From sequence record MN850595.1: a stretch of DNA of 64,000 bases; one strand, written 5' to 3'. Position numbers and translations under genes: made by a program. This document shows positions 5,613 to 15,921 of this stretch, piece after piece. Every line of letters starts with the position of its first letter. Position 1 is the stretch's first letter. The notes under the pieces were generated by a model. It was not told where the DNA came from, searched no databases, and was given only the letters and a program-made list of their open reading frames with translations. The DNA comes from Escherichia phage naswa.

Positions 5613-6656
5613 TTATTTAACGTGTTTGAAAATACCTGCCAACTCGGTCATTGTCATGCGGGTGGTCTTCATAAGATCTGTCATAGCTTTCTCCATAATT
5701 GGAGATACTACCATAAAGTTTCCTTTAGTGAAACCTTTATTCCAGTCGGTCACCAACAGGGGTTTAAGTCCAGCTCCAAGACGTTCACCAGTTAAAGCAC
5801 AGCATTTGCGAATATACGAACTCTTAAATTGGCTGAACGACAGATCAACTTTCATACCTACATCGTAGAACGTTTGACAATAGAAAGTGTAAGCTTTGGC
5901 AATCTCAACATCATCAGGTAGTGCAGGAACCTCTTCTGTAAGCTCCTCTTCGACCTCCTGAGTCTCTTTTTCCTCTTCATGCACCTGTTGCGTCATTTCT
6001 TCAATCTCTTCTGTGATAGGCTCGTTTACAATGTCGGAAATGTGCTTCTTGGGTGCACGATAAGTAACTTTAGACATCGGTAGCATATCTTCCTCCTCTT
6101 CTTCGTCAAAGAGTGCTAGTTTATCCTCTTCCGTTCCATATTGCAAGATGAAATCTTCAAAAGTATAATCACCTTTCAATTTCTCCATACGCTCTTCGCT
6201 CAGGTGGAGCATCATCTGCTGGACAATTTTTCGATCAGTTTCGTCTTTAATCAAGACTGCAGTCTTTTTATCTACCAGACAGTCCTTTAGAGAGTTGCAT
6301 CTCAATCCCACCACACAACAGTTATCAACCGCATAAGGACCTTCATCATCTATCCGCTCCAGAGATGGGTAGAAAGGATTCCCCAGCCCGTTTTCATCTG
6401 TGTGCATGTCAAAAGGTATAAGGGTATAGTCGCATACTCCATCTCCTAAAAGTTTTTTACCAAATAGGAGGTATTCTTCCCATGACAGGTCGAACTCTAT
6501 ATCTCGTTTCCGTGCGTTATTCTGTTTGCGTCTATATTTTTTGAGCAAGCGCTCTAACTCTTCTGGTGTATAATATTTTTCAAGATTCATGAGTCGTCTC
6601 TCGTGCTCTGTAAGTGAAGAAATCGTATCAATTGTCTCAACAGATGTCAACATCAA
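5613..6656 (-). CDS. hypothetical acidic protein (possible fusion of two modules)
   Basis: 347 aa; Glu-rich central region; in-frame internal ATG at 6077 preceded by GAGGAGG, encoding 'MSKVTYRA' shared with the plus-strand gene at 7921. Confidence 0.5.
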   Translation of the reverse strand: MMLTSVETIDTISSLTEHERRLMNLEKYYTPEELERLLKKYRRKQNNARKRDIEFDLSWEEYLLFGKKLLGDGVCDYTLIPFDMHTDENGLGNPFYPSLERIDDEGPYAVDNCCVVGLRCNSLKDCLVDKKTAVLIKDETDRKIVQQMMLHLSEERMEKLKGDYTFEDFILQYGTEEDKLALFDEEEEEDMLPMSKVTYRAPKKHISDIVNEPITEEIEEMTQQVHEEEKETQEVEEELTEEVPALPDDVEIAKAYTFYCQTFYDVGMKVDLSFSQFKSSYIRKCCALTGERLGAGLKPLLVTDWNKGFTKGNFMVVSPIMEKAMTDLMKTTRMTMTELAGIFKHVK

Positions 6657-10817: not shown

Positions 10818-10845
10818 TCCCCCGCTTCGGCGGGGATTTTCTATT
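10818..10845 (+). terminator. rho-independent terminator
   Basis: CCCCGC-TTCG-GCGGGG hairpin followed by ATTTTCTATTT. Confidence 0.55.
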
Positions 10846-10855
10846 TGGAGTCATT

Positions 10856-11356
10856 GTGAAAATTAAGATCTTTGCTATTATTTTGAGCGCACTTTTATCG
10901 CTGCCTGTTGTTGCAGCACCAAAACAAAAAGTATATCATACTTGCAAGCCCTCAGATACTAAGGAAAACATTCTGGCATGCAATATCTACAGGGAGGCTA
11001 GAGGGGATGGCACGATGGGTATGCTGGCATCAGGGTTTGCCACACTAAACAGGAAATCTCACCCCAAATACCCAGACACTATAAGAAAGATTGTCTACCA
11101 ACCTAACCAGTTTTCGTGGACAAACCACGGCAAAACTTTTAAGGTGACAGAAAAAGATTCATGGGATCACGCTAAAAGTCTTGCAAAGATGCTTCTAAAG
11201 GTCTATAATAACAACCATGTTGCATACATGGCTATGGACATAACAGGTGGAGCAACACACTACCATACAACCAAAGTACGACCGAAATGGGCAAAAAAGA
11301 TGCAGAGGACAGCTCAATTCGGGAGTCATATCTACTACAAGGAGCGCAATAAATGA
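10856..11356 (+). CDS. secreted SleB/CwlJ-like cell-wall hydrolase
   Basis: N-terminal signal-peptide-like segment; 'NIYREARGDG' and 'IVYQPNQFSW' resemble Hydrolase_2 signatures. Confidence 0.5.
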   Translation: MKIKIFAIILSALLSLPVVAAPKQKVYHTCKPSDTKENILACNIYREARGDGTMGMLASGFATLNRKSHPKYPDTIRKIVYQPNQFSWTNHGKTFKVTEKDSWDHAKSLAKMLLKVYNNNHVAYMAMDITGGATHYHTTKVRPKWAKKMQRTAQFGSHIYYKERNK

Positions 11357-13335
11357 TTGTAAACAGTAATGAAACTAAAGCAGTACTAACCGGAAATATG
11401 GAGGTCACCAGGGGCTCAATTTCTCTGAACAAAGAGACTTTTGGGCTAATCATTAAAGGGATTTACGAAGATAAGGTGCTGGCAAGCTGCCGTGAACCAA
11501 TCTTCAATGCTGTGGACTCCCATGTTGAGTCTGGACGGGGTGATGTACCGATCATCATTCACTCTCCTACAGACCTTGAACCATACTTCTTTGTGCAGGA
11601 CGTTGGATTGGGCATGTCGGAAGAGATGGTCCGCAACACTTTCATGAACCTCGGGGAGTCAACCAAGCGCAACAGCAACGCTCTGGTAGGTAATAAAGGT
11701 GTAGGTTCAAAGGCCCCGTTCAGCATGGTGGACACTTTCGATGTGATCAGTGTGCACAACGGTGTTGAAAGCACATATCTGTTGTTCTTGGATCAGGGTA
11801 TCCCAAACGTTACCAAGATCCGCGAGCGAAAGACTGAAGAGCACAACGGGGTAAAAGTTCAGTTCCATGTTAAGAAAGAGCATGTTCTGAAATATCGCAC
11901 TGCTATTGCGTCATGCCTACGCTATGCAAAGTTTCCGTTTACCGTTACCGACCCTATGACCAGTAAGATGCTGGAAGGTGACAAGGTTGAGGCGCAGTAT
12001 CGCTACGAGAAAGATGGTTGGAAAATGACTATCCTGAAAGGTTATACCAGCTCTGATGAGAGCCGTGTGGTGATGGGACACCAACCTTACCGCTCTAAGT
12101 TTCTGGAAACATTGACAGACTACCCTGCAATCTGTGTAGAGATCCCTATCGGGGATTGCAATATTAACCCTGGGCGCGAATGGACCATAGAGGGGCACGA
12201 CGATGGTGGATTCCAGGATCGCCTGGAGGCCTTTGTCAAAGAAGGTATACGTCTTCGTGGGGCAGAAGTTGTTGCGGAATTGGAGACAGCAAAAACATCC
12301 TCAGAAGCACGTGAGATGATGAAGAACAGTGGAGTGTTCGGACACATCTTCGGCAAAAACTTTATGTGGAACCGTTGGGAAGAAACAGGGCTTGGCGACT
12401 TAGGCGATTGTGAAATTTTCGCTGGCGGCTTAAATAAAGGCCGCATAGGCTATGCTCGTTACGGAAAGTCGGAGTTCTTACGAGGTGTATACCTTGTATT
12501 TAACGACGGAGACGGCAAATATAACCGAAATAAGTGTAACTACTTAAGCGAGATCACCGGACGCAACGTTTTCTATTGCCGTAACACGGATCTGATGGAA
12601 GAGTTTAAAGAAGCGGCACACCACCCGTTCTTTGCAGATACGGTCAAATTGTTATCAGAGCTCCCTCGCCGTCCTGTAAAGAAAGGTGAAACAAAAACTC
12701 ACTATGAGCCAGGGTATTGGGTTAAAAAACTTGAGAAAGATGGTTACTTCCGTCGTGAGCGTATTACTAAGGCAGAGTTCAAGAAGATTAAGCACTGCAT
12801 TCCTTATGAGGGTGATATCCAACGTGGAAGTTGTTGGCTGGGACAGCTAAGTAACATCTACCAGCAAAATTATGACCGTGTGCGTGCGGCACTCCAGATT
12901 CCTGAAGGGGAAGATCTGTACCTGGTATCAGAATCTCGTCTGCTTTGGACTGATCCTGATTGCCAGTATGTTACAGAGAAAAATGTGGAACATTTGTTGA
13001 AAGAGGACGCCTGGAAATTCTTACTGACTCGCGCAGCAAATGAAACTTCATATGACAGCCTGTATAGACAATTAGGGAAAATTATCCCCATGCAAGATTT
13101 TGGAAATTATCGGCCACATTTCCACAAGTGGGAAGGTAACACCGCGTGGAAGCACAGTGAGCTAAATCATCGTGCCAAAATCTTAATCGCCAACCGAGTC
13201 AAGTGCGGGAAGGCCTATATTGCAAGATTGGAAAAGAAATATCCACTTTTGAAGCATGTGGGCTTGAAATATTGGGACACTCCTGCTATGATTGAATACC
13301 GTGAACTGATCGACGCAAAGAATAACACCAAATAA
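11353..13335 (+). CDS. rIIA: rIIA-like protein with GHKL (Bergerat-fold) ATPase domain
   Basis: N-box 'EPIFNAVD', G1 'DVGLG', G2 'GNKGVG' within first 130 aa; 660 aa; followed by an rIIB-sized gene. Confidence 0.55.
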   Translation: MIVNSNETKAVLTGNMEVTRGSISLNKETFGLIIKGIYEDKVLASCREPIFNAVDSHVESGRGDVPIIIHSPTDLEPYFFVQDVGLGMSEEMVRNTFMNLGESTKRNSNALVGNKGVGSKAPFSMVDTFDVISVHNGVESTYLLFLDQGIPNVTKIRERKTEEHNGVKVQFHVKKEHVLKYRTAIASCLRYAKFPFTVTDPMTSKMLEGDKVEAQYRYEKDGWKMTILKGYTSSDESRVVMGHQPYRSKFLETLTDYPAICVEIPIGDCNINPGREWTIEGHDDGGFQDRLEAFVKEGIRLRGAEVVAELETAKTSSEAREMMKNSGVFGHIFGKNFMWNRWEETGLGDLGDCEIFAGGLNKGRIGYARYGKSEFLRGVYLVFNDGDGKYNRNKCNYLSEITGRNVFYCRNTDLMEEFKEAAHHPFFADTVKLLSELPRRPVKKGETKTHYEPGYWVKKLEKDGYFRRERITKAEFKKIKHCIPYEGDIQRGSCWLGQLSNIYQQNYDRVRAALQIPEGEDLYLVSESRLLWTDPDCQYVTEKNVEHLLKEDAWKFLLTRAANETSYDSLYRQLGKIIPMQDFGNYRPHFHKWEGNTAWKHSELNHRAKILIANRVKCGKAYIARLEKKYPLLKHVGLKYWDTPAMIEYRELIDAKNNTK

Positions 13336-13345
13336 GGAGACAGCT

Positions 13346-14551
13346 ATGATTTTCATCTACGAACATTTCAAAACTCGTAAAGAAGCACGCGACCGCCGTG
13401 CAGAACTTGAGAAGAAGGGTTTCACATGTGCTATTGAGAAAGGTACTACAACATGGACACTGGCAGTAGGTGCCCCAGAGCTGTTTGATCCTGACCGAGA
13501 CAGTGTCTGCTATACCCGTGAGGATTTTGAAACCCGCGAAGAGGCCCGTTTATTCCGCTACGGACTGGAAGACAACGGTAAGTACGCCATGATCTTAGAT
13601 TCAGGTGAAGGTTCCGTTAAACGTTGGGGCGTGGTATACCCACTGTGTGTTGTTCACGGTGTGGGGGTCACTGGGGTAGCAATCAAGTCAGAAGAACCTT
13701 TAGTAGAAGTCAAAGATCCGGTGCTGGAAGTGGTGAGCAGTGTGTCTCAGCAACAGTCTCGAAGCATCGAGCCTTTGGTAGTTATTTGCGGGGAACTCCT
13801 CCAGATCACCTGCAACGAAGGCATTTTTGAAATTCGCCGCAGCGAAAGTGAGGAAGTTTACCAGAAAGTCTTCGACCATATTTCTGTTCAGGAATATGAT
13901 GAGGCAATTGGTGAAATCCTTGTCTGGCTGGAACGCAAGAATGAGTTCACCACACTTGCAGACAACCTGATCATGAAAGATGGTAAGCTCTACTACTACG
14001 GTGTAGAGATGCGATCCACCATTGCAAAGAAAATTGAGGAAGATTATGTAGATGGAACACTGGACGACCGATATGTTAAATTCCTTGTCCGTCTGCTACG
14101 CAACCCGTCTGCAAAATCTGTGAACATGCTCTACGATTTCATGCAGGCTAATGACATCCAGGTTGCAGAAGATGGTCGAATCATTTGCTATAAGGGGGTT
14201 CAGTTTAACGGGAGCAGGTGGGTGGATTGGCACAGCGGTAAAGTTCCACAATACCAGGGTGCTTTTGTGTCCATGCCTCGTAACTTTGTAGAAGATGATC
14301 CGGAAGCTGCGTGTTCTTATGGCCTGCACTGCGCCAGCAAAGAGTATGCAGCGGGCTATGGCACTGTAATGATGGTTATGGTTGACCCTGCGGATGTGGT
14401 TAGTGTGCCATACCAACACAACAGTGCTAAGTGCCGTGCATGCCGCTACGAAATAGTAGCAGCACCGGAATCACGCAAAGATGGCGATCCGATTGAATAC
14501 GTAGTTGACCGTGATGGTAACATCATCGACATTATCTACGAGGAGGCGTAA
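13346..14551 (+). CDS. rIIB-like protein (by position only)
   Basis: 401 aa directly downstream of the rIIA-like gene; internal ~45-aa duplicated module near N-terminus; no motif verified. Confidence 0.35.
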   Translation: MIFIYEHFKTRKEARDRRAELEKKGFTCAIEKGTTTWTLAVGAPELFDPDRDSVCYTREDFETREEARLFRYGLEDNGKYAMILDSGEGSVKRWGVVYPLCVVHGVGVTGVAIKSEEPLVEVKDPVLEVVSSVSQQQSRSIEPLVVICGELLQITCNEGIFEIRRSESEEVYQKVFDHISVQEYDEAIGEILVWLERKNEFTTLADNLIMKDGKLYYYGVEMRSTIAKKIEEDYVDGTLDDRYVKFLVRLLRNPSAKSVNMLYDFMQANDIQVAEDGRIICYKGVQFNGSRWVDWHSGKVPQYQGAFVSMPRNFVEDDPEAACSYGLHCASKEYAAGYGTVMMVMVDPADVVSVPYQHNSAKCRACRYEIVAAPESRKDGDPIEYVVDRDGNIIDIIYEEA

Positions 14552-15921
14552 TGGAAAAAGGGCAGTATGACGTAGGCACAGATGCTGCCCTCATTGCAAT
14601 CATGAGTGGTGAGAATGTCTTCGTTTCAGGACCTGCAGGTTGTGGGAAGACGTATCTCATCAACATGATCCAGTCAATGTATGGAGACTCTTGCATAACG
14701 GTTGCCCCGACAGGGGTAGCCGCTTTAAACGTTAATGGAGCAACAGCACACCGAACATTCGATCTTGCAGCAGGTGTGAGCATGGAGTCGGACTGGACCG
14801 CAATAAGGGCAAAAACAGCAAAGCCTTTGAAAAGCAAGGCATTTACCATCCTAATTATCGATGAAATCTCTATGATCCGTGCTGATAAGTTTATAGAGAT
14901 GGATAGGAAACTCCGCTTCCTTCGAAAAAATGACAAACCTTTCGGAGGCATACAGGTCATATTGTTTGGCGATTTTTACCAGGCACCTCCTGTTGTCTCT
15001 TCTATGGAGAAGGAAGCCTACTTCAACTTCTACCATACGGACCTGTGTTGCTACACCGAATCTTGGAAAGAGCTTGACCTCCACAACATAGCCCTAATAG
15101 ATCAGTTCCGACAGGAGTCTATTCGATTTGCCACAATGCTTAACTGTGTTCGTGAGGGTCGTCGCATAAAAGAGGTTGTAGCAGAACTTAATGCTCGCTG
15201 TTACAAAGGTGGTGTACCAACAGATGCTCTCACAATTTGCGCCACCAACAAACAAGCAGAGGAAGTAAACAGAAGGTTCTATGATGCCATCAACGCCCCA
15301 GAGAAGGTATACACTGGTGAAATGAAGGGTAAGTTTCCCTCCACCCTGCCAGTTGAGCAGGAGATGAAGTTGAAAATTGGCATGAAAGTTATGATAACCG
15401 CCAACGATGTTGACCCGACGCACAAAGTACCTTATTATGTTAACGGAACACGTGCCACAATTGTTAAATTTAAGAACAAGGCGGTGGTGGTAGAGCTTGA
15501 AGATGGAACACAGGTTGACATAGAGCAGAGGTTGTGGGAGAATAACGAGTATAAGCCCTCTCAGAGATACAACATTGCAGAAAGGAAGATGGAGAAGTTT
15601 ATAGAGAGGGTAGTGATTGGGTCATACAAGCAACTTCCTCTGAAATCTGGGTACGCCGTAACATCTCATAAAAGTCAAGGACTTACGCTAGATTGTTACA
15701 ACCTAGACCTTGGAAAGAACGGAGCTTTCTCTCCTGGGATGACGTATGTCGCTTTGAGTAGAGTTAAGACAATACAAGGAATAAACTTGTTGCGTCCCCT
15801 AAGAGAAGTTGACATTATTGTTGACCCGCGAGTAGTAGAGTTTTACAATACAACATTCCCTGACTTAGACAAAATTGTCAGGAAAGATTTTGAAACCAGA
15901 GCAGAAGAGGGGGACGTATGA
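14551..15921 (+). CDS. SF1B DNA helicase (Dda/RecD/Pif1-like)
   Basis: Walker A 'GPAGCGKT', motif II 'IIDEISM', C-terminal 'VTSHKSQG' and 'YVALSRV' signatures. Confidence 0.8.
   Translation: MEKGQYDVGTDAALIAIMSGENVFVSGPAGCGKTYLINMIQSMYGDSCITVAPTGVAALNVNGATAHRTFDLAAGVSMESDWTAIRAKTAKPLKSKAFTILIIDEISMIRADKFIEMDRKLRFLRKNDKPFGGIQVILFGDFYQAPPVVSSMEKEAYFNFYHTDLCCYTESWKELDLHNIALIDQFRQESIRFATMLNCVREGRRIKEVVAELNARCYKGGVPTDALTICATNKQAEEVNRRFYDAINAPEKVYTGEMKGKFPSTLPVEQEMKLKIGMKVMITANDVDPTHKVPYYVNGTRATIVKFKNKAVVVELEDGTQVDIEQRLWENNEYKPSQRYNIAERKMEKFIERVVIGSYKQLPLKSGYAVTSHKSQGLTLDCYNLDLGKNGAFSPGMTYVALSRVKTIQGINLLRPLREVDIIVDPRVVEFYNTTFPDLDKIVRKDFETRAEEGDV

Follow-up and report, generated by a model that had tools for sequence, protein, structure and literature searches.

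Do the two adjacent open reading frames at positions 11353-14551 of a 64,000-nucleotide stretch of Escherichia phage naswa (sequence record MN850595.1; the whole stretch is called the window below) encode the rIIA and rIIB proteins known from phage T4, and if so, what might this pair do? The first encodes a protein of 660 amino acids (aa) with the motifs of a GHKL ATPase, and the second a protein of 401 aa with an internal duplication. Both were located exactly where an initial annotation of the window had placed them.

11353-13335, + strand: rIIA gene (magaca_153), 660 aa, ATG start (open reading frame, phrog_612, BLASTP, annotation)
13346-14551, + strand: rIIB gene (magaca_154), 401 aa, ATG start (open reading frame, phrog_609, BLASTP, annotation)

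The pair is best explained, with a probability of about 0.9, as orthologs of T4 rIIA and rIIB that are dispensable on naive hosts and permit growth on cells with lambda RexAB, possibly by way of an ATPase clamp (proposed below). Over the 3.2-kb stretch with both genes there is 100% identity to Escherichia phage magaca (MN850612), an rV5-like myovirus (Vequintavirus) with E. coli K-12 as isolation host; 118 further records match it at 90-99.7% identity. The names RIIA and rIIB are already given to the two genes in MN850612. The locus is ordinary: its annotation already exists, and its function has been characterised in a near-identical phage.

The 660-aa protein was assigned on its sequence as rIIA, a genuine ortholog of T4 rIIA. 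Its best family match was phrog_612 'RIIA' (E 2.2e-124), in which residues 1-656 were aligned in one stretch to profile positions 1-722 of 725; the same family was matched by T4 rIIA (E 9e-250). BLASTP against T4 rIIA gave 28% identity over 198 aa (E 3e-21). This alignment starts at Met1, which confirms the rIIA start codon. BLASTP alone detects only the first ~190 residues of T4 rIIA homology, and this was extended by profile methods: the rIIA family profile was aligned from positions 1-381 to T4 1-390 (E 7e-64). Beyond about residue 381 the family profile has no alignment to T4 rIIA, though phrog_612 spans the full length. The anatomy of the protein was as follows.

11431-11922, + strand: rIIA GHKL (Bergerat) ATPase domain, residues ~27-190 (Pfam HATPase_c_3, motifs, PDB profile matches)
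11494-11517, + strand: N-box (motif search)
11599-11613, + strand: G1 motif (motif search)
11689-11706, + strand: G2 motif (motif search)
11938-12207, + strand: rIIA second domain, residues ~196-285, transducer-like (signature I-P-I-G-D-x-x-x-N-P-G-R275-E276 at 12145-12180)
12211-13332, + strand: rIIA C-terminal region, residues 287-660, mixed helical/beta, lineage-variable (AlphaFold2, pLDDT [predicted local distance difference test] mostly 80-93)

The three Bergerat motifs (N-box E48-PIF-N52-AV-D55, G1 D83-V-G-L-G87 and G2 G113-NK-G-V-G118) occur once each, and Pfam HATPase_c_3 scored 34.9 bits against a curated cutoff of 25 (E 1.8e-8). Residues E48, N52, D55, D83, G85, G87, G113, G116 and G118 are invariant in an alignment of 29 rIIA homologs with identities down to 20%. 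R275 and E276 of the second domain are invariant in the same alignment. They belong to 'IPIGDCNINPGRE', a signature that lies beyond the generic ATPase fold and was aligned to 'FPMGSLDIAPSRE' of T4 rIIA; the motif PxGxxDxxPxRE is found in both. A profile search of the PDB returned the Hsp90 family as the nearest solved sequences (E 4e-7). The AlphaFold2 model of rIIA (mean pLDDT 83) was aligned over 250-300 residues with two-domain modules of ATPase and transducer, and its structural comparison gave the following values.

TRAP1: 18.6
ParE: 17.4
T6 topoisomerase II ATPase: 17.2
MORC2: 17.0
MutL: 16.6

From this model rIIA is predicted to work like a GHL/MORC-class ATPase, yet it forms a family of its own.

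The 401-aa protein is rIIB by sequence, profile and predicted-structure evidence. BLASTP aligned residues 172-371 to T4 rIIB 107-304 (36% identity over 204 aa, E 2e-38), and the rIIB family profile reached T4 residues 58-306 (E 3e-54). The protein matched phrog_609 'RIIB' with E 2.2e-60. Five motifs are common to it and T4 rIIB (NPSxKxVxxLxDF, MPRxxVxDD, CSxGLH, PxDVVSxP and KxRxCxYE). The AlphaFold2 model is confident from about residue 145 (pLDDT 80-94), and when it was compared by Foldseek with BFVD, all 31 matches at E<=1e-3 were rIIB proteins (T4-like, N4-like, PhiW-14 and the RB43 fusion). A sequence-profile search of the PDB with the rIIB family gave nothing better than E 0.08. The rIIB core is a conserved alpha/beta domain without a solved structural relative.

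13769-14470, + strand: conserved rIIB core, residues ~142-375

Within this core, C323-x4-H328 and C363-x2-C366 (14312-14443) show no variation among 35 rIIB proteins, rV5-like and related, which suggests a metal site. A four-ligand zinc site (C323, H328, C363, C366) was rejected as a universal rIIB trait, since T4 rIIB has Met at the position of C363. All 120 rIIB homologs listed carry a precomputed Pfam match to PF26926, which was absent from the local Pfam scan of this rIIB; PF26926 is probably a more recent Pfam entry that covers the rIIB core. On a 3.3-kb ENA contig, a 498-aa protein was noted in which TPR repeats precede or follow a part with 95% identity to the C-terminal 55% of this rIIB; it is most likely a chimeric assembly and not a real fusion.

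These results bear on several statements of the initial annotation. Its Bergerat motifs were recovered, with HATPase_c_3 above cutoff, and its rIIA call, which it had held as an inference from size and context, is supported by the full-length phrog_612 match and the T4 rIIA alignment. Its rIIB call was right about the identity; the basis, which had been given as position only (a reasonable caution for a reading without tools), now consists of sequence, profile and predicted-structure evidence; the remark that the protein has no verified rIIB motif is superseded by the five motifs shared with T4. The profile comparison of rII with non-rII families, which it had proposed, returned phrog_612 'RIIA' and phrog_609 'RIIB' as best matches, and neither a non-rII GHKL family nor an unrelated downstream family came out on top. 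The structure predictions that it had also proposed gave an ATPase and transducer fold for rIIA and a model of rIIB that matches rIIB proteins only (BFVD, E<=1e-3). Nothing was found that contradicts the rIIA/rIIB identity.

The N-terminus of rIIB, with the duplication of ~45 aa reported earlier, is organised differently from that of T4 rIIB.

13352-13471, + strand: rIIB repeat 1, residues 3-42, beta-alpha-beta-beta (AlphaFold2, self-alignment, hhalign)
13505-13651, + strand: rIIB repeat 2, residues 54-102, beta-alpha-beta-beta (AlphaFold2, self-alignment, hhalign)
13652-13768, + strand: rIIB acidic linker, residues 103-141, disordered or low-confidence (pLDDT 26-30, isoelectric point 4.6)

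The duplication was borne out by sequence shuffling, hhalign and the AlphaFold2 units of about 40-49 aa. In the self-alignment the core E6-G25 against E59-G78 scored 44, a value reached by 0 of 2000 shuffles, and half-versus-half profiles from the rIIB family alignment (hhalign) paired residues 6-41 with 59-98 at a probability of 94% (E 1e-7). The repeat units are ~40-49 aa long with a period of 53 aa. Among 35 homologs both copies carry the invariant pattern F-x-[ST]-R-x-[ED]-A-R ... R-W-x-V; the linker varies in length and shows little conservation in the homolog alignment. The tandem module is rare: of 1.84 billion proteins searched with its profile, just 9 cluster representatives were recovered, namely five rIIB-like proteins of ~400 aa and four proteins of 42-134 aa. 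No further copy of the module was detected in any open reading frame of at least 30 aa in the window. Single units are matched by stand-alone phage mini-proteins of 38-45 aa (BFVD A0A5B7LKJ6, A0A2I7RAJ6 and A0A142IEA5; target TM-scores 0.87-0.90), and in a related rIIB the homologous N-terminal part is matched by phrog_6265 (42 positions) and phrog_8127 (E 1e-7).

The Pfam scan of this rIIB gave no match to a helix-turn-helix family. The absence of the T4-type helix-turn-helix leaves the rIIB membership unaffected, because rIIB N-termini vary widely, as do lengths (273-644 aa among the Foldseek matches). This lineage-specific tandem module is the only mildly new element of the locus. That it is a swappable specificity module, an N-terminal adaptor whose tandem units replace the T4-type helix-turn-helix in Vequintavirus and relatives, is a tentative idea that we regard as rather doubtful. 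Should it be true, with the module setting the binding of rIIB or its detection by CARD-gasdermin or Tmn, the module would represent a small, new family of domains that shapes the rII arms race.

The partnership of the two proteins was examined in related viruses. In 15/16 related viral contigs (rIIB identity down to ~35%) rIIA and rIIB are on one strand, with rIIA directly 5' and either adjoining or overlapping rIIB; the 16th contig ends within the locus, so the adjacency is cut off there. The phrog_609 profile is matched at its N-terminal end by rIIA and at its C-terminal end by rIIB, and natural rIIA-rIIB fusion proteins exist (e.g. in phage RB43). The function has been addressed in EdH4, a Vequintavirus with 95.7% nucleotide identity to the rII stretch, where EdH4_00063 is identical to rIIA at 651/660 positions, EdH4_00062 is identical to rIIB at 391/401 positions and the flanking genes are the same. 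Knockdown of EdH4 rIIA or rIIB (CRISPRi-ART) reduced plating only on RexAB-expressing cells, and without RexAB plating was unchanged (PMC11879866). In Bas54 (Vequintavirinae), transposon insertions were found throughout the rII orthologs and were depleted in the downstream helicase gene (HIDEN-SEQ supplement). T-even rIIB has been reported as a trigger both of CARD-gasdermin defence (PMC10312443) and of Tmn defence (PMC13001434).

The orthology, domain anatomy and conserved adjacency come from the present analysis; the mechanism is one that we infer. The proposal of a clamp acting on replication draws on the GHL-type anatomy, the genomic context and the literature, in which rIIB is described as a replisome-associated protein. 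As a GHL/MORC-type ATPase, rIIA would use a GHKL domain in which the catalytic Glu and the Mg-binding Asn are retained, together with a transducer-like second domain bearing the invariant Arg-Glu. ATP binding would probably close a dimeric rIIA clamp, and this movement may be relayed to the lineage-specific C-terminal domain. The putative obligate partner, rIIB, would consist of the conserved alpha/beta core and an exchangeable N-terminal adaptor (helix-turn-helix in T4, two beta-alpha-beta-beta units here). Jointly, rIIA and rIIB would sit on replicating phage DNA or on a membrane-associated replication complex, and the signal that activates RexA would thereby be kept from forming or from being seen.

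Three points weigh against this explanation. The RexAB phenotype comes from measurements on EdH4, a phage other than magaca. No transmembrane segment was detected in rIIA or rIIB, nor a conserved one by hydropathy scan, in which the sole stretch above 1.6 was rIIB residues 95-113 (part strand, part non-conserved linker); the classical label 'membrane-associated' would therefore require peripheral binding. Lastly, the missing T4-type helix-turn-helix weakens the universality of DNA binding by rIIB.

The pair could instead mainly control the timing of lysis, perhaps with the product of the gene upstream.

10856-11356, + strand: SleB/CwlJ-like cell-wall hydrolase gene (Pfam Hydrolase_2, E 2e-19)
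11340-11356, + strand: junction of hydrolase and rIIA genes (AGGAG ribosome-binding site 11340-11344, rIIA ATG 11353-11355)

Both PHROGs and RefSeq carry the label 'RIIA/RIIB lysis inhibitor'. The rIIA ATG overlaps the TGA stop of the hydrolase gene (ATGA), with AGGAG 8 bases upstream of the ATG, and EdH4 and Bas54 retain the order hydrolase-rIIA-rIIB. Around the rII genes of T4 no such hydrolase is encoded. The first rIIB repeat weakly resembles half of the peptidoglycan-binding SPOR domain: residues 8-42, scanned alone as a fragment, scored 22.3 bits with Pfam SPOR against a cutoff of 21, but this match lies at threshold and covers profile positions 12-49 of 76 only. Moreover, rIIB has neither a signal peptide nor a transmembrane segment and should not reach the peptidoglycan, and the EdH4 knockdowns had no plating effect without RexAB. 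A lysis-timing role is accordingly improbable. A signal-peptide-like N-terminus (MKIKIFAIILSALLSLPVVAAP) was noted in the hydrolase itself, which sits in the early/replication cluster.

A little less probable still is that rIIB has the role suggested for the jumbo-phage orthologs of T4 rIIB, that of a specific transcription factor modulating the transcription of the phage. Such orthologs have been listed among specific transcription factors (PMC7824862), and T4 rIIB gave weak N-terminal helix-turn-helix matches (e.g. HTH_7, E 5.6e-5). Against this, the N-terminus of the present rIIB is made of the two beta-alpha-beta-beta units in place of any helix-turn-helix match, and what is conserved among all rIIB proteins lies in the C-terminal core and not at the N-terminus.

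A reading of the 660-aa protein as a GHKL ATPase outside the rII family (MORC-, MutL-, Hsp90- or defence-like), rIIA-like in size only and followed by an unrelated gene, has a negligible chance of being right and was refuted by the rII profile, BLASTP and Foldseek matches: the rIIA family match is full-length (E 2e-124), PxGxxDxxPxRE is shared with T4 rIIA, the protein encoded downstream has 36% identity to T4 rIIB, and PADLOC and NCBIfam scans of both proteins gave no family-level match to a defence system or cellular GHKL protein (NCBIfam HSP90 18 bits, cutoff 455; restriction-enzyme model 17.8 bits, cutoff 550; best PADLOC match E 0.005 with 12.6 bits).

The remaining junctions and the downstream gene make up the rest of the immediate genomic surroundings.

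13335-13348, + strand: junction of rIIA and rIIB genes (AGGAG 13335-13339, rIIB ATG 13346; read from sequence)
14540-14553, + strand: junction of rIIB and helicase genes (GAGGAGG ribosome-binding site, TAATG overlap of rIIB stop with helicase start)
14551-15921, + strand: Pif1/Dda-like helicase gene (Pfam PIF1 E 1.5e-32, phrog_325)

Between rIIA and rIIB the AGGAG starts on the last base of the rIIA TAA (13333-13335) and the spacer is 10 bases. The two genes form a tightly packed module that is probably translationally coupled. The + strand block around them encodes a MoxR-like ATPase, two DNA methyltransferases, a primase-helicase and a DNA polymerase (Pfam and PHROG matches), and because these neighbours are of replication type the pair was placed in a replication/early gene cluster. 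The arrangement hydrolase-rIIA-rIIB-helicase recurs unchanged in EdH4 and Bas54. Just 5' of the hydrolase gene, at 10820-10835 (+), a GC-rich hairpin CCCCGCTTCGGCGGGG is followed by ATTTTCT, and EdH4 has a terminator annotated at the equivalent position. A separate transcription unit may thus begin with these four genes. A promoter and terminator scan of 6-20 kb gave counts no higher than the shuffled expectation, and only this hairpin stood out.

Other observations were made in the window and its database matches. No tRNA or tmRNA gene was found across the whole 64 kb. The sign of the GC skew flips near 6-8 kb and 46-48 kb, matching coding-strand switches. A 347-aa protein at 5613-6656 (-) matched an 'HNH endonuclease' PHROG (E 8e-113) and also 'decoy of host sigma70' and 'Srd anti-sigma factor' PHROGs, and is labelled 'anti-sigma factor' in magaca; its functional labels are in conflict. 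Sixteen GenBank 'Campylobacter phage' records matched the rII region (11353-14551) at >=90% (e.g. MG065635, phage C12, 99.2%), 15 of which list C. jejuni as host. These records are a host or naming oddity, and the phages are possibly mis-assigned.

The annotation of the locus is correct, and as the role has already been demonstrated for near-identical orthologs, its value beyond quality control is small. The predicted two-domain ATPase and transducer architecture of rIIA, with an invariant Arg-Glu common to T4, provides concrete residues for mutation some 70 years after the discovery of rII. The N-terminal module of rIIB differs among phage lineages, which is possibly relevant as rIIB triggers at least two bacterial defences (PMC10312443, PMC13001434).

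Among known systems, the GHL/MORC-class GHKL ATPases (Hsp90/TRAP1, GyrB/ParE, phage topoisomerase II, MutL and MORC) share the fold of rIIA in its first ~280 residues only, at 9-16% identity and with no family-level profile match; the C-terminal 370 residues of rIIA are unrelated to the Hsp90 middle and C domains, the MutL endonuclease domain, Toprim or the MORC CW domains. T4 has the same tightly packed order of rIIA then rIIB, the same PHROG families for both proteins, identical GHKL motif positions in rIIA (E48, N52, D55), a second domain with PxGxxDxxPxRE, ~380 alignable residues of rIIA and a rIIB core alignable over ~250 residues. It differs in the length of rIIA (725 residues, 660 here, with the last ~280 unaligned by the family profile), in the N-terminus of rIIB (a helix-turn-helix region of ~57 residues, against two repeats and an acidic linker) and in the neighbouring genes (topoisomerase gene 60 and denB, against the SleB-like hydrolase and the Pif1/Dda-like helicase). 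The rIIB part of the RB43 rIIA-rIIB fusion (1049 aa) matches the present rIIB model (Foldseek E 2.4e-17), but RB43 has one fused protein where the present locus has separate genes with the 10-base spacer. EdH4 has 99% (rIIA) and 98% (rIIB) amino-acid identity, with 9 substitutions in rIIA and 10 in rIIB, and the same genes on either side.

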